A DNA stretch of 64,000 nt from Escherichia phage UPEC03: sequence record MW250785, one strand, 5' to 3'. Positions 3,433 through 56,186 of this stretch are shown here, piece by piece. The translations under genes were made by a program, and so were the position numbers. The notes below the pieces were generated by a model. It searched no databases and had not been told where the DNA came from. It worked only from the letters and a program-made list of their open reading frames with translations. Numbering within the stretch: position 1 is the first letter of the stretch; each line of letters opens with the position of its first letter.

Positions 3433-4760
3433 ACATAATCAACGGTGTAACGTGCGCGGGTTACGCCCACATAGATTAACTGCTTACACAGATCGTAATC
3501 TGCGAACGCATACGCATCGCGCGTGTACATATACGCATGGTCATACGTGCTCCCCTGTGATTTGTGATACGTGCAAACCGGAAGAGGCTTAACATCCTGG
3601 AACTTGTTTTTAATCGCCCAGAACGAATGCCACGGGGCTTTATAGCCTGTTTGCTGCTTGATGCGCTTATAAGTGCTCGCAACGTAGGCCAGATAGTTAC
3701 CCAGACGGTCTTTCATCACCGGATCAACAACAACCTGAATCTGTGCTTCGGTTTCCTCTTCGAGCGATACCGTTTTCAGAAGATAGAATTCAAGTTCGAT
3801 CTTCTCGTCGCACTTCTCCGCCTTGATAACTTCCCGACGCGGGATGATCTCTAAGACTCGGATTTTTTCGTTGTTGTTATAAACAATCTCGGTGAAGATC
3901 TGCCCGTTCAACCGCATTTCCTGAACTAACGGTTCCTGCATCACGATCACTTCATCGAGAATGAACGGTTCTGTTGTTTTGTACAGGTGTTTACGGATCG
4001 TTGCGTTCAGCTTGTCTACGTTGTCGTTAGTATACGCGAACATGCGGTTCTCGATCAAGTCATCCGGCGTTTTAACACGGCGGAAATACTGACGGAGGAA
4101 GTCAACAGCGTTAGCATGTTGGAACACACCCAGATCACCGACAGACATCGGTTTCAGCATCTTACCATCACGTACAGCCCGTGAAACCTGAATAATCGGG
4201 TTCCCTTCTGCCTGACGCATGATTTTATCCATACGGATAACATCAAAGATTTCTTCATCAAAGAACGGGGAGAGTTCAACACGTCCATCGGCGTTTACCG
4301 GACGGATCTGATCTTTATCACCCAGTCCCAGAATAACAGCGTTGCTTGGAATACTGCGCCGGATGATTCGGAACAGATCCATATCAACCATCGAGACTTC
4401 TTCAACAACGAACACGCGACAGGTAGACAGATCAGGCGCTTTCTTGCCTTTCTGCTGTTCGAACACACGCAGTTCTTCGTTAGTCACAGGGCTAATCTTC
4501 AATGCAGAATGAATCGTTGTTGCGTCCATTCCCGTAGCCGCTGCTAACACGTTTTTAGCCTGGTGTGTTGGGGCAGTTAACCAAATACCGCTAATCCCCA
4601 ACCCTTTCAGAGTGTTAAAGACAAACTTAACCAGTGTTGTTTTACCAACACCAGGGCCACCCGTAATAGTTGTATGAATGGCGTTCTGGATGTTGTGGAT
4701 CACGCGATCATGCGCGGACTTCTGATCGTCGCTCAGATCATCAAATGTTAACTCGCTCAT
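3429..4760 (-). CDS. dda: Dda DNA helicase (SF1B)
   Basis: 443 aa; Walker A GGPGVGKTT; strong similarity to T4 Dda along whole length (…YVGVTRARYTVDYV C-terminus). Confidence 0.9.
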   Translation of the reverse strand: MSELTFDDLSDDQKSAHDRVIHNIQNAIHTTITGGPGVGKTTLVKFVFNTLKGLGISGIWLTAPTHQAKNVLAAATGMDATTIHSALKISPVTNEELRVFEQQKGKKAPDLSTCRVFVVEEVSMVDMDLFRIIRRSIPSNAVILGLGDKDQIRPVNADGRVELSPFFDEEIFDVIRMDKIMRQAEGNPIIQVSRAVRDGKMLKPMSVGDLGVFQHANAVDFLRQYFRRVKTPDDLIENRMFAYTNDNVDKLNATIRKHLYKTTEPFILDEVIVMQEPLVQEMRLNGQIFTEIVYNNNEKIRVLEIIPRREVIKAEKCDEKIELEFYLLKTVSLEEETEAQIQVVVDPVMKDRLGNYLAYVASTYKRIKQQTGYKAPWHSFWAIKNKFQDVKPLPVCTYHKSQGSTYDHAYMYTRDAYAFADYDLCKQLIYVGVTRARYTVDYV

Positions 4761-25456: not shown

Positions 25457-27144
25457 AATTAAATTTCCGTAAAATTAAGTATCAAAATATTCTGTCGGTC
25501 GGGAACACCCCGATCGAACTGGAATTTGATACGGCAAAGAAAACCCTGATCACGGGGAAAAACGGTGGCGGTAAATCGACACTGATCGAGGCGTTAACCT
25601 ATGCCCTGTTCGGTAAATCATTCCGCGATCTAAAAGTCGGGCAGTTGGTGAACAGCGTCAACAAAAAGAAATGCCTGGTTGAACTGGAAATCGAATACGG
25701 GAAAGACTCGTACAAAGTGGTGCGCGGACAAAAGCCGAAGGTGTTCGAGATCTGGAAGAACGGTGAGAAGTTGCCGGAAGACTCCGCAGCAGGTGATTAT
25801 CAGGCACAGCTTGAATCTATGCTGAACATCAACCTTGTGGGCTTCAAACAGGTTATCGTTCTGGGTACAGCGGGTTACACCCCATTCATGGAACTGAAAA
25901 CCCCAGAACGCCGGAAACTGGTTGAAGATTTGCTGTCTCTGTCCGTCATCAGTGAAATGGATAAGCTGAACAAGTCATACATTCGCGGTGTTAATCAGCA
26001 GTTGGATACGCTCTCAATGCAGGGTAATCACATCCAGCAGCAGATCGCAACACATCAGCGCTTCATTGACGAACAGCGAGCGAAAGCGAACCAGAACAAC
26101 GCCCGATACAAAGAGATCTATGATAGCCACGTAGAAACCGCAAAGAACATCAAAGCACAGCTTATGCAGTTGCAAGCGGAGATTGCGGAATCGGTGATCA
26201 CTGGAGAAGACCGGACGGAAGATATCAACAAACTCCGTGACGGTTATTCGCGGCTCTCAATGACTGTAGAACAGTTTAAAAAGCTGGAGGTGATGTATCA
26301 GAAAGGCGGTGAGTGTCCGGCCTGTAAGCAAGCGATTAAACCCACTCCTGAGCGTATGGCGGAGATCGCAGAGAACATCAAAGCGGGCACACAACGTTTA
26401 ACCCTGATCAAAACCAAACAGGACGAGTTACAAGGGATCATGAATGACTTGCTGCAACAGCAACGCGCACTCAATGCCCTGAAAACCAAATATGAAGCCC
26501 TGAAAGGTACTCTGCAAAACGAAGTTGCCAATGCTAAACGAGCACAGGCGATCATGGAACAGGCAAGCGCGGAAGTAGTCATTGATGAAGAACCCGTGAA
26601 GCAGTTGCAACAGCAGGAAGCAGAACTGAACGAAAAACGACAAGGCTACGTCAAGGAAAAATACATTCGTGGTATTGTTACTGATATGTTGAAAGATTCC
26701 GGCGTTAAGGCCAGCATTGTTAAGCGCTATATTCCGTACTTCAACAAACAGATAGCATATTATCTGGATCTGTTGGGTGCGGATTACCAGTTCACTTTAG
26801 ATGACGAGTTCAACGAATCGATCAAATCACTGGGGCGCGATGATTTCAGTTATGCGTCATTCAGTCAAGGCGAACGTGCTCGCATCAACTTGTCTATTCT
26901 GTTCACATGGCGTGACGTGACAAGTAAAGTATCAGGCGTGGATCTGTCTCTGCTGATTATGGACGAAGTTTTCGATAACGCTCTTGATAAAGAAGGTGCG
27001 TTTGCTGTAGGGGCTGTTCTGAATGGTATTGATGGTAATATCATGGTGATTAGCCACAACGATTTAGACCCTGGTGATTTCGATCGTCATATCGTCATGG
27101 CTAAATTGGGGCGCTTCTCGAAGATGGAAATCAAGAAGTCTTAA
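25453..27144 (+). CDS. 46: recombination endonuclease subunit gp46 (Rad50/SbcC-like ATPase)
   Basis: 563 aa; Walker A GKNGGGKST, coiled coil with CPAC zinc hook, C-terminal signature; co-linear with T4 gp46. Confidence 0.9.
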   Translation: MKLNFRKIKYQNILSVGNTPIELEFDTAKKTLITGKNGGGKSTLIEALTYALFGKSFRDLKVGQLVNSVNKKKCLVELEIEYGKDSYKVVRGQKPKVFEIWKNGEKLPEDSAAGDYQAQLESMLNINLVGFKQVIVLGTAGYTPFMELKTPERRKLVEDLLSLSVISEMDKLNKSYIRGVNQQLDTLSMQGNHIQQQIATHQRFIDEQRAKANQNNARYKEIYDSHVETAKNIKAQLMQLQAEIAESVITGEDRTEDINKLRDGYSRLSMTVEQFKKLEVMYQKGGECPACKQAIKPTPERMAEIAENIKAGTQRLTLIKTKQDELQGIMNDLLQQQRALNALKTKYEALKGTLQNEVANAKRAQAIMEQASAEVVIDEEPVKQLQQQEAELNEKRQGYVKEKYIRGIVTDMLKDSGVKASIVKRYIPYFNKQIAYYLDLLGADYQFTLDDEFNESIKSLGRDDFSYASFSQGERARINLSILFTWRDVTSKVSGVDLSLLIMDEVFDNALDKEGAFAVGAVLNGIDGNIMVISHNDLDPGDFDRHIVMAKLGRFSKMEIKKS

Positions 27145-27841
27145 ACTTGCAGTTGTCAAAATGCCATCGTTTCATATTGGTGGCATCACCAACTTTAGCG
27201 CAATGGGGGCAAGTTAATTGCTCCCTTTTCTTTTGTATTTTTCTGTCTGGGTTCTGGGTACAATATGGAATATGGCTGTTCAAGTAATGCACTGTCGATT
27301 CTGTACCACAATGAGGACAAGAACCGCGATCTGATACTACGTTGCTGTTTTTATGTGCTCGCATGACTCCTGCAAATGCATTCACTTTCCCTTCATTGCC
27401 TGGCTTGTGCTTGCAGTTGTCGAAGTGCCAGCGGTTCATATTACCTACTAAGCCGGACGTATTGCAATGAGGACACGTAACCCTGTTCTGTTGAAGTTTG
27501 GCCTGTCTCATGCGTAAGCGTGTCTCTTCGCTGAACTCTTTTTGTTTCTGGGCTTCAAGTGCTTTTTCTTTTAACCATCCATAGCGGCGGTTTGCTGTAC
27601 GCGCAGACGATCGAGAAGTGCCGACTGTAAGCATGTTAGCAGCATAAATTAGTTTATGGTTGCCTGGATACATCTTAACCAATAGCAGATGTGCTATGAA
27701 ATGTTGACGTGCTGACAGTTCAACCAGATTTTCGGGATCGTCCGATCCTCCCATACATTTTGGAACGATGTGATGTTTCTCTTTGTACTTTGCATCCGTT
27801 CCGGTAGTCATGAGTTGTTCGTAAATCTTATGATAATTCAT
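27131..27841 (-). CDS. HNH endonuclease with repeated CxxC zinc-finger modules
   Basis: HHIVPKCMGGSDDPENLVELSARQHFIAH HNH core; three CPHC...W(H)FDNCK repeats; 3' end overlaps 3' end of gene 46 convergently. Confidence 0.75.
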   Translation of the reverse strand: MNYHKIYEQLMTTGTDAKYKEKHHIVPKCMGGSDDPENLVELSARQHFIAHLLLVKMYPGNHKLIYAANMLTVGTSRSSARTANRRYGWLKEKALEAQKQKEFSEETRLRMRQAKLQQNRVTCPHCNTSGLVGNMNRWHFDNCKHKPGNEGKVNAFAGVMRAHKNSNVVSDRGSCPHCGTESTVHYLNSHIPYCTQNPDRKIQKKREQLTCPHCAKVGDATNMKRWHFDNCKFKTS

Positions 27842-27889: not shown

Positions 27890-28087
27890 ATGATTATGTT
27901 AGAACGTGAATTTGATTTAAAGACCTCTCCCGAAGTGGAGAGGTTTTATCTCCATAATGAACTATTGGAAGAAAAACATGTAGTTACAATGGCAGATGTT
28001 GAGGAAGCATTCAAAGATAACCCCATTGAATTGACACGCATCAAGAATAATAAATCTTCGGTGTGGTTCCTCGAAAAAATCTATTGA
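27890..28087 (+). CDS. hypothetical small protein
   Basis: ORF. Confidence 0.3.
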   Translation: MIMLEREFDLKTSPEVERFYLHNELLEEKHVVTMADVEEAFKDNPIELTRIKNNKSSVWFLEKIY

Positions 28088-28112
28088 CAGCAAAACATAA
28101 ATACCTTAAAGT
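28084..28112 (+). promoter_or_regulatory. candidate sigma70-type promoter TTGACA-17-TAAAGT upstream of J-domain gene
   Basis: Perfect -35, weak -10; followed by GAGG SD and ATG 28159. Confidence 0.4.
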
Positions 28113-28158
28113 TGCCCGTGTACTGAGTTACATGGGCTTTTATTTTGAGGAACGGAAA

Positions 28159-29859
28159 ATGATTAACGAACAAATGTCACACAGCGAAGCATTGAAGATT
28201 TTGGGCGCTACTGGCGACGAATCTAAAGCTGAACTGTCAAAGCTCTTTAAACGTGCTTCTCTGCGCAATCACCCCGACCGTGGTGGTAGCACTGAACTCA
28301 TGCAGAAAATCAACCAGGCGTATGACGTTGTAACCAAAACAAACAGCGCTGGTAAAACTTACAGTGATGTTCGCGCAGAACACGCAGCAAACAAAAAAGC
28401 ATGGGAAGAAAAATTTGCAGCGTATTTCGTGGTTGCGAAAAACTATTTCAGCACGAAATTCAACGCGCAAGAGTTCGCGGAATACTTCACGAAATTCACC
28501 GGACAACCAACAACCTATACTCAGTCAATCAGCGAAGTTCGCGGTCATACTGTTCACGCGACATATCGTTTCACCTCTGGTGATGCGTTCTTTGACTTCT
28601 CTTTCTCTTGTCAACCGCCGAACGGTCAAGGTTTAGCAGCGCCGGACGCGTCCGCACTGGGTAGCGTATCGGTTAATACTCTGGTTCTGGTTGGTACGAA
28701 GAAACACAAAATGGCAAGCCGTGATTACCAATGGGGCAAGAACCCAGACAAAATCACGCCGGAAAGCCTGTTCCCTGCTAAGAAACTGGAATCCATCTTT
28801 AGCCCGACTAAGAAGGATCTCAAGTTCAAACGCGCAGACTACATGACATCCTTTGCCCGTATCTTGGGTGCGAAGGTTAGCGGTAACGATGTTATTGTTG
28901 ATGTTGGACACTATAAAGTTCACTTCTACCGTCACGTATTCATGCGTAAAGGCGCGTATGTGTTCCAGTATGTTGTTGACCCAACTGTGAACAAATTCAA
29001 ACCTGCTGAACGTCTGAAAGGTACTATGCTGGAAGATGAAGACGGTGCATGTCTGGATATGATCATCGACACTTTCAAAGAAATGCAGAAAGTGAAACCA
29101 GACGCAAGCGGCATCGCAGCGGTAATCGACCGGATGAACGCAGAGTTTGCAGCGGGGCATCGTTCAGCATCTTTTGTTAAACGTACCGCACAGCAAGCAG
29201 CAGCACCAGCGCCGGAAGAGAAACCAAAACGCACCGTTAACCGCATCAATAAAGATGACTATTTCAACGCACTGAAACAAGCAGGGGCAACATTCCGCAG
29301 TAACTACGGTGAGTTTGATAACGGCGCGGGTTTGACTTTCCACTTCAAACGCGAGATCAGCAACCGCAAAGGTTTCTGGAGTTTCAGCAGCTTTGATTTC
29401 ATGCACTCCGGTCAGAAACATGTGGAATGGTTGAAAGATATCGACATTGATGAGGATAGCAAAGGCGCAAGTATCGGTTTGCTGGTTGATACCCTGAAAC
29501 AACTTCGTGGTGTTGCTGACTGGTACACAGCCCGTAAGATCCTTGAAGGTATGCGTGATAACTTCAAGGCTGGTAAATTCTCCGCACCTCATGTGAAGAA
29601 AGAAGCCGAACAGAAACGCACTGAAACGCAAGCTAAGGACGAGTTAGGCGCACAGCCTACGAAACCACAGGCAGCGAATAAAGAATCCCCAGCGGTTGAT
29701 AAGGCGCATCAGGCACAGATGGATCGTGAGAAGTCACAGATGAATGCAACCATTCGTTCTATGCTCTCTGCCCTGGTTAAAGCCGGACGCAAAGACACGC
29801 CGGAAGAAATTAAAAAAGCAGTCGATGAAGCAATCGCTCTTTGGCGCTTGAAACACTAA
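28159..29859 (+). CDS. J-domain (DnaJ-like) protein, Rki-like
   Basis: N-terminal J domain ALKILGATGDESKAELSKLFKRASLRNHPDRGG...INQAYDVV with HPD motif; ~490-aa C-terminal region without recognisable domain. Confidence 0.8.
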   Translation: MINEQMSHSEALKILGATGDESKAELSKLFKRASLRNHPDRGGSTELMQKINQAYDVVTKTNSAGKTYSDVRAEHAANKKAWEEKFAAYFVVAKNYFSTKFNAQEFAEYFTKFTGQPTTYTQSISEVRGHTVHATYRFTSGDAFFDFSFSCQPPNGQGLAAPDASALGSVSVNTLVLVGTKKHKMASRDYQWGKNPDKITPESLFPAKKLESIFSPTKKDLKFKRADYMTSFARILGAKVSGNDVIVDVGHYKVHFYRHVFMRKGAYVFQYVVDPTVNKFKPAERLKGTMLEDEDGACLDMIIDTFKEMQKVKPDASGIAAVIDRMNAEFAAGHRSASFVKRTAQQAAAPAPEEKPKRTVNRINKDDYFNALKQAGATFRSNYGEFDNGAGLTFHFKREISNRKGFWSFSSFDFMHSGQKHVEWLKDIDIDEDSKGASIGLLVDTLKQLRGVADWYTARKILEGMRDNFKAGKFSAPHVKKEAEQKRTETQAKDELGAQPTKPQAANKESPAVDKAHQAQMDREKSQMNATIRSMLSALVKAGRKDTPEEIKKAVDEAIALWRLKH

Positions 29860-29875
29860 CTGGTTATGCTATAAT
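29848..29875 (+). promoter_or_regulatory. sigma70-type promoter TTGAAA-16-TATAAT
   Basis: Seen in sequence immediately before the hairpin at 29876-29907. Confidence 0.55.
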
Positions 29876-29907
29876 GGGAACTGTTGAAAAGCAGTTCCCT
29901 TTTTTAT
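29876..29907 (+). terminator. hairpin GGGAACTG-TTGAAAA-GCAGTTCCC followed by TTTTTT
   Basis: Seen in sequence after J-domain gene. Confidence 0.6.
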
Positions 29908-29916
29908 GAGGTGAGT

Positions 29917-30144
29917 ATGATTATTCAGGTATCGGTTCAGGGTAACACTCTGACAGTAACCAATTCCATTATGACCGCTATGGCTGCATGTCGTGATTAT
30001 GTGATGTCAAACCCTCCGGTAACGGAAATTCTGGAAATTGATGTATGGGAAGACGGTGTGATCGAAGAATCCTTTGGGTTCACTCCGTTAGAAGAAGATT
30101 TACGCAAAATGGAACAATGGTTATGGCAAACTGTACCCCAATGA
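29917..30144 (+). CDS. hypothetical protein
   Basis: ORF with GAGGTGAG SD. Confidence 0.4.
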   Translation: MIIQVSVQGNTLTVTNSIMTAMAACRDYVMSNPPVTEILEIDVWEDGVIEESFGFTPLEEDLRKMEQWLWQTVPQ

Positions 30145-40531: not shown

Positions 40532-40608
40532 GGCCCTTTAGCTTAATTGGTTAGAGCGGGTGACTCATAATCGCGCGGTTGCTGGTTCGAATCCAGCAGG
40601 GGCCACCA
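40532..40608 (+). tRNA. tRNA with CAU anticodon (Met, or Ile if lysidine-modified), encoded CCA
   Basis: Acceptor GGCCCTT/AGGGGCC, T-arm GCTGG-TTCGAAT-CCAGC, anticodon loop CTCATAA; hand-folded. Confidence 0.75.
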
Positions 40609-40613
40609 AATAC

Positions 40614-40689
40614 GCAGGTGTAGTTCAATTGGTAGAATATCTGGTTTCCATCCAGATTGTTGAGGGTTCGAGTCCCTTCACCTGCTCCA
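40614..40689 (+). tRNA. tRNA-Gly (UCC), encoded CCA
   Basis: Acceptor GCAGGTG/CACCTGC, anticodon arm TCTGG-TTTCCAT-CCAGA, T-loop TTCGAGT; hand-folded. Confidence 0.8.
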
Positions 40690-46953: not shown

Positions 46954-47014
46954 TGCTTGCTTACTGGGTAATGTAGTGGTACATTACCCATATCGAAACG
47001 AAAGGAGAAACATC
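46930..47014 (+). promoter_or_regulatory. cassette variant: -35 TTGCTT, spacer containing perfect 10-bp inverted repeat GGGTAATGTA/TACATTACCC, -10 TACATT, leader ATATCGAAACGAAAGGAG
   Basis: Seen in sequence. Confidence 0.5.
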
Positions 47015-47194
47015 ATGAAAATTATGCACACTGCAAATCAACTTCAAAACGGCAACTACGCTATCCACGATGCTATCGGTGCGCTGGTTGGGGTTTATCT
47101 TCATGGTATCAAACTCCTTGAAGTAAGTGGGAATACCTTTTATGGTGTTGAAAACATCGAAGCAGCGATGGAAATTATCGGTGACCTGAAATGA
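47015..47194 (+). CDS. hypothetical small protein
   Basis: ORF from internal ATG with AAGGAG SD. Confidence 0.4.
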   Translation: MKIMHTANQLQNGNYAIHDAIGALVGVYLHGIKLLEVSGNTFYGVENIEAAMEIIGDLK

Positions 47195-53522: not shown

Positions 53523-54266
53523 ATGATTGACATAATCCGCGTAAAACTCCCAGGTGGAGTGAAGCGATTCCCTATGTTTACCGTGCGCGATCAATTGAGT
53601 TTCTTACTCACAAGCGCGGACATGGAAGGGAAGACGCTCACAGAACAGCAAGAAATGCTGGATGAAATTTTAGATATTCTGTATCCGGGTTATTCCCGCA
53701 CCGAACAGGAAAACATTTTCACTAAGGTGTATTGTGTATCGTTCGGTAAGAACGCAATCAAGATCCGAATCAAAGGCAGCAGCGGACAATCAGAAGCATT
53801 CATGCATGTAACTGATTACGTTTTGCAAAATGAATATGCCCTTGATGATTCGCTTACTCTGGGATTCAAATTCCCGAAACATCGTAACAACAGTGAACAA
53901 TTATTCCTTGAATGTATCCAGTATGTCAAGCAGGACGGCGAAAGATACGAATGGAATGCATTAGACGAGGATACAAAGAACGCGATCCTGGATCTGGTGT
54001 CTATTGAAGATATGGAAAATATCGTTAAACTGTTACGCAAGTCCTGTCATGTTACCGTGCGTGATATTGAGTTCAGCGACTTATTGACACTGTACAAAAT
54101 CCTGTTCAACAAATCAGAACTGAATGAGTTCTTCAAAACCAACTATTTGTTAAATAAGAATACCGTACAGATTGAACCTATAATGAATGGAAGCCCGATG
54201 GAACGTTCAATTTACGTTGCATTGCTGGCAGAAGACTTGAAACGAAAAGAGAATGCAAATGCGTAA
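53523..54266 (+). CDS. putative baseplate hub assembly protein (gp51-like by size/position)
   Basis: 247 aa; location in baseplate cluster next to gp25. Confidence 0.35.
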   Translation: MIDIIRVKLPGGVKRFPMFTVRDQLSFLLTSADMEGKTLTEQQEMLDEILDILYPGYSRTEQENIFTKVYCVSFGKNAIKIRIKGSSGQSEAFMHVTDYVLQNEYALDDSLTLGFKFPKHRNNSEQLFLECIQYVKQDGERYEWNALDEDTKNAILDLVSIEDMENIVKLLRKSCHVTVRDIEFSDLLTLYKILFNKSELNEFFKTNYLLNKNTVQIEPIMNGSPMERSIYVALLAEDLKRKENANA

Positions 54267-54816
54267 ACATACCCCCCGACATATCCCAAAATATAATGTG
54301 ACTTATCGCCCGTTAACCATTGGCGATCTTGATGATACGGATAACTTCATCATTGAAGGTGATGTGTTCAGGCATCAGCGCGATTATGTTTACATTATGG
54401 CTCTGTTCGACAGTATCAACAAAGAGACTGTAGATCTCCAAATCAAATGCCCTGAATGCGGGGAACTGATTAAGTTTGTGCTCAACCGTCATCATATCAT
54501 GGTGGATGAATACGAAGAAAAGCTGTATGGCAATGAGATCAAGATTTCAGTTGAACCACGTCGCACCGGAAAGGAAGAGTTACCCGAACTGATTAAGTTT
54601 GTTGTCATCGACGGTGAACAAATCTTATGGGATGACTGTAAAGAGTCAGAGAAAGAAGCCGTTCTGGATAGTATCGACTATCCGGTCTTTAAATCAATAA
54701 ATAGCGCCCTGGATAAGCCAGCAATCGTTGCAAACATTCCGGTAAGGTGTTCGTGTGGCTACGAGCATATCGTTGCACTGAGAGGCTTAGAGGCGTTTCT
54801 AAAGGTGGTTGGATAA
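54253..54816 (+). CDS. putative baseplate hub protein with zinc-ribbon motifs (gp26-like by position)
   Basis: CPECG...CSCG pairs; adjacent to gp25. Confidence 0.35.
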   Translation: MQMRKHTPRHIPKYNVTYRPLTIGDLDDTDNFIIEGDVFRHQRDYVYIMALFDSINKETVDLQIKCPECGELIKFVLNRHHIMVDEYEEKLYGNEIKISVEPRRTGKEELPELIKFVVIDGEQILWDDCKESEKEAVLDSIDYPVFKSINSALDKPAIVANIPVRCSCGYEHIVALRGLEAFLKVVG

Positions 54817-55210
54817 AATGGGTGTTAACCTTCGCTTACTGTATAGCGATATCGATCCCAACTTAACAAAAGACTGGAACAATGACGTAACCGCCTCGAA
54901 AGGGGCGGCAGCGGTAAAGAATAGTCTGATCGGTATCGTAACAACACAAAAAGGCACACGGCCTTTCGATAGCAACTTTGGTTGTGAGATCGGGGAACAG
55001 ATTTTCGAGAACATGAACCCGCTAACAGCGGAAGCAGTAAGGACTTCGATTGTCTCCGCGATCCGCACATACGAACCCCGTGTTTACAATCTGGATGTTG
55101 AAGTGATTCCGCAGTATGACGAAAACGCAATCACCGTGACGATTTACTACAGCATCATTGATGAACCGGAAGAAGTAGAAAGAATCAAACTCCAGCTATC
55201 ATCCTCATAA
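54809..55210 (+). CDS. 25: baseplate wedge protein gp25
   Basis: LYSDIDPNLTKDWNNDV...KNSLIGIVTTQKGTRPFDSNFGCEIGEQIFENMNPLTAEAV...IKLQLSSS closely parallels T4 gp25. Confidence 0.9.
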   Translation: MDKMGVNLRLLYSDIDPNLTKDWNNDVTASKGAAAVKNSLIGIVTTQKGTRPFDSNFGCEIGEQIFENMNPLTAEAVRTSIVSAIRTYEPRVYNLDVEVIPQYDENAITVTIYYSIIDEPEEVERIKLQLSSS

Positions 55211-55233
55211 CAAAAAGCCCCTTTCGGGGCTTT
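55211..55233. terminator. bidirectional hairpin AAAAGCCCC-TTTC-GGGGCTTTT between convergent genes
   Basis: Seen in sequence. Confidence 0.6.
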
Positions 55234-55235
55234 TC

Positions 55236-55733
55236 TTATTCCATCACGATCCAGCCCATTAGCTGTTGATATCGCAATTCGAACGGGGTGATGAAAGAGC
55301 GGTTATTGATAACCTTCGTCCCGTTGTAGGACTTAATCACTTCTTCACCACGAAGTACATATTCGTATACTTCGTCCATAGTGTCGTAACGCACTTCTTC
55401 GACTTCGAAGCAGAAGTTGGAATATTCAATCATCCCGATCTTGTTCGCGTAACGACGTTCGATACAACCCTGTTTTTCAATCTGAGTAATCGCAGTATCA
55501 ATGAACTGCGCAAGTGCTTGCATGAAATTACCACATTCGACTTCACGGCCCCCGCTTGAGATAGCCAGGTAAACGCGGTTCAATCCATCATTACCGATGT
55601 AGCCGATGCAATCGCCACCGATATTAACAGCCCACACTTTACCCATTGGCCCCATACCCATTCTGTTCTCACTACGAGAAACACCTTTCAGTAACAGTGC
55701 CATGATACCGCCGCGAACGTAATTCATTTTCAT
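55236..55733 (-). CDS. hypothetical protein
   Basis: 165 aa ORF, no recognised domain. Confidence 0.4.
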   Translation of the reverse strand: MKMNYVRGGIMALLLKGVSRSENRMGMGPMGKVWAVNIGGDCIGYIGNDGLNRVYLAISSGGREVECGNFMQALAQFIDTAITQIEKQGCIERRYANKIGMIEYSNFCFEVEEVRYDTMDEVYEYVLRGEEVIKSYNGTKVINNRSFITPFELRYQQLMGWIVME

Positions 55734-55743
55734 GATAAGCCCC

Positions 55744-55974
55744 TTATTTTTTCAGGTTGATTAACCAAGATGGTTGGGTTTCTAAACTAACCGCTTTCCA
55801 AGCATATGCAACACTATAACCGGAATACGTCTGACATACAACAGCATTTTCATTTAAATATTTCACTTTGTGATTTGCCTCTTGTTCATCCAGGGCAGCA
55901 CACACGATATTCTTTTCATACACCCCGCCGTTTGGCTGGATAATGGTTTCTTCAATCAGATAAACGCTGTTCAT
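55744..55974 (-). CDS. hypothetical small protein
   Basis: ORF. Confidence 0.35.
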   Translation of the reverse strand: MNSVYLIEETIIQPNGGVYEKNIVCAALDEQEANHKVKYLNENAVVCQTYSGYSVAYAWKAVSLETQPSWLINLKK

Positions 55975-56186
55975 GCTAATTCCTTCTCGATTGCTTCGAT
56001 GATGTGGAGAACGTAACCGTTCAGTTCTTTTGCTTTATCAGCGGCTTCAACCATACCGTAACGAGGAACTTCTAAAACGTTCGCACCTTCGAGCAGGTTG
56101 CTTTCGATGTCTACGATTACGTAGCTCTCACCGATTACTGCGCCTTTTCTCCAGTCTTTTACGAACTTCATCATTTTAGCTTTCAT
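55971..56186 (-). CDS. hypothetical small protein (start MKAKMMKF)
   Basis: ATG directly after conserved leader copy. Confidence 0.4.
   Translation of the reverse strand: MKAKMMKFVKDWRKGAVIGESYVIVDIESNLLEGANVLEVPRYGMVEAADKAKELNGYVLHIIEAIEKELA

Follow-up and report, generated by a model that had tools for sequence, protein, structure and literature searches.

Domain map of a full-length Rki16-type J-domain protein encoded by a T4-like phage

INTRODUCTION

What is the function of a phage J-domain protein in which the J-domain makes up only a small part of the chain? This question is raised by a 566-codon open reading frame (ORF) in the 64-kb stretch of phage DNA analyzed here (sequence record MW250785; referred to below as the window). 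An earlier note had recognized an N-terminal J-domain with an HPD motif in the predicted product, had named the Rki protein of coliphage RB43 as the probable precedent, and had left the long remainder of the protein unassigned. To our knowledge, no phage J-domain protein (JDP) other than Rki has had its function studied experimentally.

RB43 Rki is the protein behind all of the mechanistic work. When swapped into DnaJ, its J-domain complements a triple JDP mutant, and the H38Q substitution abolishes this complementation (Perrody et al. 2012, PMC3486835). DnaK is pulled down by Rki and is bound via the J-domain; Rki is monomeric and stimulates the ATPase of DnaK, but generic co-chaperone activity is absent, with no chaperone activity on luciferase and no ability to replace DnaJ (PMC3486835). 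Its toxicity is strictly dependent on DnaK and on the HPD motif and is lost in Rki(1-159). Rki stabilizes sigma32, and binding of Rki to sigma32 requires DnaK. Deletion of rki impairs plaque formation, a defect that is suppressed by a dnaK mutation or by extra sigma32; in some host backgrounds, dnaK mutants support better growth of RB43, and Rki may compete with DnaJ (PMC3486835). The corresponding protein of coliphage RB16, Rki16, was detected by Western blotting in RB16 infection and also stabilizes sigma32; it complements the rki deletion less efficiently than Rki and is less toxic (PMC3486835). According to a 2026 review, the J-domain is the only known domain in phage class C JDPs.

RESULTS

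The gene, its start codon, and its locus

The gene runs from an ATG at 28159 to a TAA at 29857-29859, and these coordinates are exact in the ORF list.

28159-29859, plus strand: coding sequence (CDS) of the Rki16-type (Rki-ORF058) J-domain protein, 566 aa followed by TAA
28147-28151, plus strand: Shine-Dalgarno sequence GAGGA, 7 nt 5' of the ATG, read from the sequence

The 566-aa protein shows 100% identity with ECF1_0132, a CDS of Enterobacter phage EC-F1, which is a Pseudotevenvirus. A GTG at 28063 would extend the protein to 598 aa, would overlap the end of gene 45.2, and would run through a promoter and a hairpin; the ATG at 28159 was preferred because it has a good Shine-Dalgarno sequence and agrees with all orthologs. 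Two minus-strand ORFs within the gene (28633-29160, 175 aa; 29164-29631, 155 aa) were treated as chance ORFs, since they lack annotation and purifying selection on the sense frame is strong.

Genes 47, 46, and 45.2 precede the Rki-type gene, and frd, td, and nrdA follow it. The gene occupies the same slot in RB43 and RB16, and the neighborhood is kept even around homologs with 36 to 51% identity. The surrounding genes are those of DNA replication, recombination, and nucleotide metabolism.

The protein is 84.6% identical to Rki16 of RB16 and 84.3% identical to the combined RB43 products 057w and 058w, with collinearity over 100% of the length and no frame changes. The alignment to RB43 Rki called for in the earlier note was run and is thus collinear with ORF057w (Rki) plus ORF058w. 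That note's suggestion of known biology is borne out by this collinear homology, by the shared locus, and by the promoter boxes described below. Its choice of comparator was right as to the family but not as to the member: the appropriate reference is the 565-aa Rki16, not the 237-aa Rki. The gene is, then, already known and is the ordinary, previously described Rki16 form.

Promoter and hairpin elements flank the gene on both sides.

28084-28112, plus strand: predicted early sigma70-type promoter, TTGACA-17 nt-TAAAGT (consensus scan, 10 of 12 matches)
28114-28147, plus strand: terminator-like GC-rich hairpin (28114-28137) and T-run, directly 3' of the promoter (terminator scan)
29848-29899, plus strand: second promoter-plus-hairpin cassette, at the 3' end of the gene and 5' of a small gene with its ATG at 29917

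The pattern TTGACA-17-TAAAGT has its sole exact match in the window at 28084-28112, and the early promoter of RB43 rki has the same two boxes (Perrody et al. 2012, PMC3486835); homology to that promoter predicts both promoter function and early timing here. The stem of the upstream hairpin has 9 bp, including 5 GC pairs, and is followed by TTTTATTTTG (terminator scan). As a unit, 28084-28147 resembles the promoter-plus-stem-loop cassettes (PeSLs) of T4-type phages (PMC2839356), and the likeness is one of resemblance only. The downstream cassette consists of TTGAAA, 16 nt, and TG-TATAAT, followed by a 10-bp stem and a T-run.

The N-terminal J-domain

28171-28359, plus strand: J-domain, residues 5-67 (helix I, 8-15; helix II, 23-36; HPD, 38-40; helix III, 45-60)

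The stretch SLRNHPDRGG occupies residues 34-43, and its HPD (residues 38-40) is invariant across a 25-sequence alignment. Searched as a single sequence, the protein matched the Pfam DnaJ model (PF00226) with an E value of 1.1e-5 and 25.9 bits, 1.9 bits below the gathering score of 27.8; a precomputed PF00226 match was present in 15 of the 24 homologs returned. When the 25-sequence family profile was compared with PDB sequences, it matched solved J-domains only, more than 50 of them, the best being Tim14 (3.5e-11); E. coli DnaJ chain 5nro_B was matched at an E value of 3.1e-10. All of these matches lay at profile positions 4-121, with starts at 4-26, and were thus anchored on the J-domain.

The AlphaFold model has helices at residues 8-15, 23-36, and 45-60, with a pLDDT of 82-87 over residues 21-60. 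Foldseek matched this part of the model to the Tim14 J-domain with a probability of 1.00 and a TM score of 0.75, and probabilities of 1.00 were also obtained for the J-domains of polyomavirus T antigen and Ydj1. The model shows no evident canonical helix IV; a long helix (residues 68-100) comes next instead. PF00226, the family profile, AlphaFold, and Foldseek therefore uphold the reading of a J-domain with an HPD motif, and helices II and III, whose absence from a predicted structure the earlier note had named as the observation that would count against it, are both present with the HPD in the loop between them. The sequence of helix II, the HPD, and helix III is identical in this protein and RB43 Rki, and HPD-dependent stimulation of the DnaK ATPase by this protein is predicted from that identity.

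Scores for the DnaJ equivalog models, whose cut-offs are 338-392, were about 20 bits. The zinc-finger signature CxxCxGxG is absent from this ORF and from any credible ORF of the window, its sole match in the window falling at 46972-47118, in a stretch of 49 aa without a stop. The small ORFs of RB43 that resemble the DnaJ zinc finger (179c and 191c in PMC3486835) have no credible counterpart in the window. One 565-aa member of the RB43/RB16 cluster bears the label "CbpA," which we regard as a misannotation.

Domains beyond the J-domain

28360-28458, plus strand: long single helix, residues 68-100, linking J to A (AlphaFold; pLDDT about 79-83)
28459-28821, plus strand: domain A, residues 101-221; helix, beta-meander, motif (AlphaFold, conservation)
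28822-29214, plus strand: domain B, residues 222-352; helix, six strands, three helices
29239-29592, plus strand: domain C, residues 361-478; tandem duplicate of domain B
29593-29694, plus strand: disordered K/E/Q/A-rich linker, residues 479-512 (pLDDT 31-37, composition)
29695-29856, plus strand: C-terminal helical hairpin, residues 513-566 (helices 513-542 and 548-565; pLDDT 88-91)

As the earlier note had it, the rest of the protein holds no recognizable domain in Pfam, NCBIfam, PHROGs, or PDB sequences; the PHROGs matches were to unknown-function families only, of which PHROG 7739 matches the protein end to end (1235.7 bits). Structure prediction of the C-terminal region, also proposed there, delimited A, B, C, the linker, and the hairpin, so that the region is now divided into defined domains.

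Domain A carries a motif, P-E-x-x-F-P-x-x-K-L (residues 201-210), that is family-wide among 84 diverse J-A-B proteins. Its loop at residues 156-162 has low confidence in the AlphaFold model. The nontoxic Rki(1-159) was cut after Met159, in predicted coil (PMC3486835), and this site fits the low-confidence loop. Because Rki(1-159) is nontoxic, the toxicity determinant should lie in the latter half of A or immediately beyond it.

Domain B begins at a conserved K-R-A-D-Y motif and holds R258 and an F-M-R-K-G motif. That C is a duplicate of B was evident by blastp (33% identity over 93 aa, E value of 5e-10) and by hhalign (about 99.4%, E value of 5e-22), and the two have the same secondary-structure order in the AlphaFold model. 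Domains A, B, and C all have a similar order of secondary-structure elements. Comparison by hhalign, using 25- and 84-sequence profiles, gave no signal for A as a third copy of B/C. The linker at residues 479-512 probably explains the weak low-complexity similarity to "PTZ00121" mentioned previously (PMC3486835).

Foldseek found no significant match in the PDB outside the J-domain, and the significant matches in a BFVD fold search were family members only. Most of the weak fold neighbors of domain B are modules for protein-protein interaction (RWD, UBC/UEV-like, frataxin, PsiB, and Mediator). A 47-sequence B/C profile searched against 5.8 billion proteins returned 0 matches, known family members being absent as well, and so does not count as a negative result.

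Full-length and truncated forms

28873-28875, plus strand: codon 239 (AAG, Lys), the position of the RB43 TAA stop; GAA in RB16

The RB43 stop falls 14 residues into domain B, just past its first helix, and this position inside a domain marks the 237-aa Rki as a nonsense truncation. The annotated start of RB43 ORF058w is a Met within a beta-strand of B and has no visible Shine-Dalgarno sequence. The gene has been broken independently elsewhere: Klebsiella phage ALF_ER54 has a nonsense change (CAG to TAG) at another site, and Aeromonas phage 65 has a frameshift, the gene being intact in phage 65.2. Protein coverage was at least 80% in 176 of 204 phage records. Within the 90% cluster that contains RB43 and RB16, pieces of 237 and 305 aa come from RB43 records only, and the other members listed are 502-590 aa long, mostly 565. 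The wider J-A-B family comprises at least 99 clusters at 50% identity, from large phages, in which B is intact. Full length is the normal state of the protein.

Purifying selection acts on all parts of the protein, with dN/dS values of 0.03-0.24 for J, A, B, C, and the tail in three comparisons. Relative to RB16, substitutions lie mostly in A and B, and C and the tail are almost unchanged; the hairpin is nearly identical even at synonymous sites (pS of 0.06). Between RB43 and RB16, where changes are few, the ratio of synonymous to nonsynonymous changes is 9:1 upstream of the RB43 stop and 15.5:7.5 downstream, numbers too small to speak for or against relaxed selection past the stop.

These observations bear on whether rki and ORF058 were independent genes that fused only recently to give the long form, whose C-terminal half would then be an unrelated joined protein. 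The annotation of two ORFs in RB43 and RB42 and the description of the RB16 and KP15 proteins as "fusions" (PMC3486835) would favor such an origin. However, a junction at the RB43 stop would leave the first helix of B on one side and an ORF058w start inside a B strand on the other, B is whole throughout the J-A-B clusters, the split pieces of the 90% cluster are confined to RB43 records, and the lesions in ALF_ER54 and Aeromonas phage 65 are independent events elsewhere in the gene. We therefore consider a recent fusion highly improbable.

DISCUSSION

This analysis established the orthology of the protein, its domain boundaries, and the duplication of B and C. What is new is the domain map of a formerly unexplained tail, together with the evidence for truncation of RB43 Rki. 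In its widespread form the protein has five defined parts and carries a tandem domain duplication, and the RB43 model protein is cut within a folded domain; what has been concluded from the shortened version may not fit the natural protein. The domain boundaries also give concrete constructs for the study of how phages reprogram DnaK.

The protein is very probably a full-length Rki-type class C (type III) JDP of RB43-group T4-like phages that acts via DnaK and sigma32. We infer the same activity in Enterobacter, along with the roles suggested below for B, C, and the tail. The gene would be transcribed early from its own sigma70-type promoter, and the J-domain would dock on host DnaK and trigger ATP hydrolysis. 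The non-J part, of which at least domain A would be needed at this step, would not deliver generic unfolded clients and would instead retain the protein at the DnaK-sigma32 complex or block DnaK in some other way. Sigma32 would then not be passed to FtsH, would accumulate, and would induce heat-shock proteins, and phage growth would improve, above all at low temperature or on certain hosts. The remaining parts (B, C, the linker, and the hairpin) would serve as extra protein-binding or regulatory modules that temper the J-A core. Since the full-length form is less active than truncated Rki in published assays, the natural protein may have a main role other than sigma32 stabilization.

A broader hypothesis, which we put forward tentatively, is that the natural, ancestral Rki is multi-domain (J-A-B widely and J-A-B-C-tail in the RB43 and KP15 groups), that the 237-aa RB43 Rki is a nonsense-truncated, hyper-toxic allele, and that B, C, and the tail form a phage-restricted protein-binding module that gates J-A or aims DnaK at a specific target. 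If all of this holds, the role of the phage J-protein would be broader than, or other than, sigma32 stabilization.

Besides the fusion considered above, two other accounts deserve weighing. The protein could be a targeted co-chaperone whose A, B, and C domains bind a specific phage or host client, or a few of them, and bring in DnaK for their folding, remodeling, or disassembly, with sigma32 stabilization a side effect of the overexpressed truncated form. Auxilin, HscB, and SV40 T antigen are class C JDPs that act in this way. The duplicated, well-folded domains and the hairpin, all under purifying selection, suggest extra binding surfaces, more than sigma32 stabilization by the 237-aa form needs, and the weak fold neighbors of B are mostly interaction modules; moreover, Rki16 is less potent on sigma32 than truncated Rki (PMC3486835), and the gene lies among those of DNA replication, recombination, and nucleotide metabolism. 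Such an activity is hard to reconcile with the inactivity of Rki as a chaperone on luciferase, with its inability to replace DnaJ, and with the full suppression of the rki deletion by extra sigma32 or a dnaK mutation (PMC3486835), which suggests that the phage needs relief from a DnaK activity and not its use. We regard targeted recruitment as possible but rather doubtful.

Suppression by a dnaK mutation is also what would be expected if the protein locked DnaK in an unproductive state, for example by J-triggered hydrolysis combined with a substrate-like segment in the peptide-binding cleft. The gain to the phage would then be the loss of a DnaK activity that harms infection, and the rise in sigma32 would be one readout. 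The toxicity that depends on DnaK and the HPD and requires residues past 159, the better growth of RB43 on dnaK mutants in some backgrounds, and the possible competition with DnaJ (PMC3486835) are consistent with such a decoy. The region required for toxicity contains a family-wide basic/hydrophobic segment, F-P-x-x-K-L-K-K-x-F (residues 205-214), and it is our speculation that this segment mimics a DnaK substrate. In the AlphaFold model, however, the segment forms short helices that pack against domain A. Full rescue of the rki deletion is achieved by extra sigma32 alone, pointing to sigma32 output, and Rki stimulates the DnaK ATPase and does not abolish it (PMC3486835). An inhibitory lock thus seems unlikely.

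Among known systems, E. coli DnaJ, CbpA, and DjlA have in common with this protein a J-domain with the HPD. The G/F region, the CxxCxGxG zinc finger, and the C-terminal client-binding domains of DnaJ are absent here (Pfam, NCBIfam), which places the protein in class C; it is not an ortholog of DnaJ or CbpA. Like other class C (type III) JDPs, which lack a G/F region or zinc finger, it joins a J-domain to unrelated specialized modules. The best J-domain match is Tim14/Pam18 (2guz_A; E value of 3e-6 with the single sequence and 3.5e-11 with the profile, TM score of 0.75), and the two share a short "HPD-K/R-GGS" loop, which reads HPDRGGS in this protein. No similarity to Tim14/Pam18 was found outside the J-domain; Tim14/Pam18 has a membrane anchor and a C-terminal J-domain, whereas here there is no anchor, the J-domain is N-terminal, and the partner is DnaK. 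Domain B has a weak fold likeness to the alpha+beta two-layer sandwiches of RWD, UBC/UEV-like, frataxin, and PsiB proteins. RB43 Rki (ORF057w, 237 aa, UniProt Q56BZ1) has the J-domain, long helix, and domain A in common with this protein but, with its stop at codon 238, lacks B, C, the linker, and the tail, and it exceeds the long form in toxicity and in activity on sigma32 (PMC3486835). Rki16 (RB16p058, UniProt D9ICB9, 565 aa) has the same locus, promoter boxes, and domain order as the protein described here; the two differ in host range, Rki16 belonging to a coliphage and this protein matching that of an Enterobacter phage.

Gene and locus

The gene is a plus-strand ORF of 566 aa that begins at ATG 28159 and ends with TAA at 29857-29859. 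The coordinates proposed in the earlier note (28159-29859) are exact, since a GAGGA Shine-Dalgarno sequence lies 7 nt 5' of this ATG and all orthologs start at the same position. A longer version starting at GTG 28063, from a mechanical ORF list, was rejected: its first codons lie within the final part of the gene 45.2 homolog (27890-28087; Pfam Gp45_2), and it crosses a promoter-like site and a hairpin. Enterobacter phage EC-F1 (MN508623.2; Straboviridae, Pseudotevenvirus, RB43 group) shares every base with the window across 28159-29859 (100% identity); its copy, ECF1_0132, is annotated merely as "hypothetical protein." Two cassettes bracket the gene.

Predicted promoter and hairpin cassettes flanking the gene
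28084-28147, 5' of the gene: promoter (TTGACA-17-TAAAGT), GC hairpin, T-run
29848-29899, 3' end of the gene: promoter (TTGAAA-16-TG-TATAAT), GC hairpin, T-run

In the wider window, GC and AT skew flip sign at ~22000 and ~54000-56000, consistent with changes in the direction of transcription (before ~21 kb and after ~57 kb the large ORFs are on the minus strand, and between these points mostly on the plus strand). Adjacent tRNA-Met (CAT) and tRNA-Gly (TCC) genes at 40532-40689 (ARAGORN, Rfam) are ordinary in T4-like phages. The 236-aa ORF between gene 46 and gene 45.2 (27131-27841, minus strand) probably encodes a homing endonuclease, given a weak HNH match and three copies of a zinc-ribbon-like motif (C-P-H-C ... 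W-H-F-D-N-C-K); this slot is empty in RB43, holds a different, plus-strand HNH gene in RB16, and is "hypothetical" in EC-F1.

A class C J-domain protein

The earlier note had called a J-domain from sequence alone, and its HPD-bearing helix II/III is present in an AlphaFold2 model of the full protein built with a 25-sequence family alignment (mean pLDDT, 79.7). Helices span residues 8-15, 23-36, and 45-60, and the HPD, part of SLRNHPDRGG at residues 34-43, sits in the loop joining the last two. As a single sequence, the protein matched Pfam DnaJ with an E value of 1.1e-5 and 25.9 bits, slightly under the 27.8-bit gathering score, and phmmer against solved structures retrieved J-domains, with Tim14/Pam18 (2guz_A) at the top (E, 3e-6). 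A profile from 25 family members matched over 50 J-domains of solved structure, with Tim14 (3.5e-11) and E. coli DnaJ (5nro_B; 3.1e-10) scoring best; among the matches listed, all were J-domain proteins, starting within profile positions 4-26. Foldseek matched the J-domains of Tim14, polyomavirus T-antigen, and Ydj1 with probabilities of 0.98-1.00. Neither a G/F region nor a zinc finger was found among Pfam/NCBIfam domain matches or by the CxxCxGxG motif, which makes this a class C J-domain protein.

Orthology with Rki and Rki16

The link to RB43 Rki drawn in the earlier note holds, the protein being the long form of Rki. Alignments run end to end with the RB16 protein Rki16 (84.6% identity) and with RB43 ORF057w plus ORF058w when the intervening stop is read through (84.3%); the codon at the RB43 TAA position is GAA in RB16 and AAG in the window. 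Synteny is that of the rki locus (3' of genes 47, 46, and 45.2 and 5' of frd, td, and nrdA), and the boxes of the putative promoter at 28084-28112 are identical to the ones reported for rki (PMC3486835). The gene is thus already known through a close ortholog described in the literature, and both the observation and its interpretation in the earlier note are correct.

Rki (ORF057w, 237 aa) has a functional J-domain, which complements a triple J-domain protein mutant when swapped into DnaJ, an activity abolished by H38Q (PMC3486835). Rki engages DnaK and raises its ATPase activity but does not act as a general co-chaperone (Perrody et al. 2012, PMC3486835). Early expression is driven by a TTGACA/TAAAGT promoter; Rki toxicity is DnaK dependent and is lost in Rki(1-159); and sigma32 is stabilized by Rki in a DnaK-dependent complex (PMC3486835). 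Rki helps plaque formation, and the deletion defect is suppressed by a dnaK mutation or extra sigma32 (PMC3486835). RB16 and KP15 have the gene joined in frame with ORF058w, described as "fused," giving the 565-aa Rki16, which was detected by Western blotting and is less toxic and less efficient in sigma32 stabilization and complementation (PMC3486835).

Public annotations of the 90%-identity cluster containing RB43 and RB16 disagree ("hypothetical protein," "DnaJ protein," "dnaJ: chaperone protein," "curved DNA-binding protein CbpA"); in one record the match is called "dihydrofolate reductase." Two members are listed as bacterial, one from a Bacteroidales MAG and one a partial Brucella melitensis entry, and probably reflect phage contamination or mis-binning.

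Domain organization

Boundaries were drawn from the full model together with a model of residues 221-351 alone (pLDDT, 90.6; pTM, 0.86).

Predicted domains and segments of the 566-aa protein
Residues 1-67: J-domain, helices I-III with HPD
Residues 68-100: one single long helix
Residues 101-221: domain A, helix and beta-meander, low-confidence loop at 156-162, then P-E-x-x-F-P-x-x-K-L at 201-210
Residues 222-352: domain B, helix, six strands, three helices
Residues 353-360: Pro/Glu linker, low confidence
Residues 361-478: domain C, same layout as B
Residues 479-512: disordered segment, K/E/Q/A-rich, pLDDT 31-37
Residues 513-566: two-helix hairpin

B and C share 33% identity across 93 aa by blastp (E, 5e-10) and align with 99.45% probability by profile-profile hhalign (E, 4.9e-22; 113 columns), beginning at the K-R-A-D-Y/N-K-D-D-Y helix; the two domains are homologous. 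Family profiles compared with hhalign revealed no sequence relation of A to either. The nontoxic Rki(1-159) was cut after Met159, in predicted coil (PMC3486835), a site that fits the loop at 156-162 left unconfident by AlphaFold. On this model, the toxicity determinant would then lie beyond residue 159, in the second half of A, the F-P-x-x-K-L motif, or the first helix of B.

Residues 80-566, searched exhaustively with phmmer against 1.84 billion representatives, matched at least 99 clusters at an E value of 1e-3 or better, most of them 320-370 aa long and matching residues 80-330, a J-A-B architecture; a few members carry extra N- or C-terminal extensions. All sampled family sequences have the HPD, as do 107 of the 117 collected proteins, the others being fragments or HTD/HSD variants. 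Conservation across the family covers the J-domain core, K-K-x-K (181-184), P-E-x-x-F-P-x-x-K-L (201-210), and, in B, K-R-(A)-D (224-227), R258 with F-M-R-x-G (261-265), and E292. T4-like synteny is retained around homologs with 36% and 51% identity, and further homologs come from viral contigs of 137-224 kb and from a Desulfovibrio phage.

RB43 Rki as a truncated allele

The RB43 stop (codon 238, window codon 239) falls 14 residues into domain B, just past its first helix, and the annotated ORF058w start is a Met within a B beta-strand, with no ribosome-binding site apparent. Within the 90%-identity cluster, pieces of 237 and 305 aa are confined to RB43 records; the remaining members listed measure 502-590 aa, most of them 565. 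At least 80% of the protein is covered in 176 of 204 matching phage records, and among the matches listed only RB43 and Klebsiella phage vB_KpnM_ALF_ER54 have two annotated features under the match. In the latter, a single, independent CAG-to-TAG substitution at codon 349, within the B-C linker, leaves two annotated ORFs of 348 and 187 aa, and the start assigned to the second falls inside domain C. Aeromonas phage 65, named as "not fused" in PMC3486835, has a frameshift right after K-K-A-D-Y, beyond which B continues in the +1 frame; the frameshift may be genuine or an artifact of sequencing, and the protein of phage 65.2 is intact (337 aa). The phage 65 ORF, annotated as a 244-aa "DnaJ-like" product (ST65p124), ends through this frameshift, with B readable in +1 to a stop near 3910 (the break and its continuation span ~3660-3910 of its locus, L029).

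From the position of the RB43 stop, the RB43-only pieces, the mostly full-length records, and the independent breaks elsewhere, we conclude that the full-length form is the ancestral one, that the splits represent tip-level lesions, and that RB43 Rki is a truncated allele, not the ancestral unit. The view that two independent genes became fused is essentially excluded. Two of the three lesions lie at the A/B junction, which may be chance or may reflect selection for a J-A product of greater potency.

Comparisons with RB16, a KP15-like phage, and a 62%-identical contig gave dN/dS of 0.03-0.24 in each segment with a defined estimate, C and the tail included; the values are rough, with synonymous sites near saturation, which also left two segments without an estimate. 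Synonymous divergence from RB16 is ~0.5-0.7 over most of the gene, 0.22 in the linker before the tail, and 0.06 in the last 54 codons (29695-29856), a fall that indicates a recent recombination junction within the gene.

Proposed function and comparison with known systems

The best-supported reading, which we consider probable, draws on the published ortholog experiments and the orthology found here. The gene would be expressed early, and the J-domain would engage DnaK; the J-A core would then act on the complex of DnaK with sigma32, sparing sigma32 from FtsH, and the heat shock regulon would be induced. B, C, and the tail would serve as modules for modulation or binding. That the intact multidomain protein acts beyond sigma32 stabilization is conceivable, if doubtful. 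Other readings of the non-J part are a targeted co-chaperone for some particular client, which seems unlikely, and a DnaK decoy or inhibitor, which we regard as a little less likely still. These likelihoods are not meant to sum to one because the rivals overlap with the DnaK/sigma32 reading.

What this analysis adds is the map of the formerly "unassigned" region, including the B/C duplication, the size of the J-A-B family, and the reinterpretation of RB43 Rki. The correct comparator for the protein is the 565-aa Rki16, not the 237-aa RB43 Rki. The two bracketing cassettes resemble the "PeSL" mobile regulatory cassettes of T4-type phages, for which a role in the shuffling of ORFan genes has been proposed (PMC2839356).
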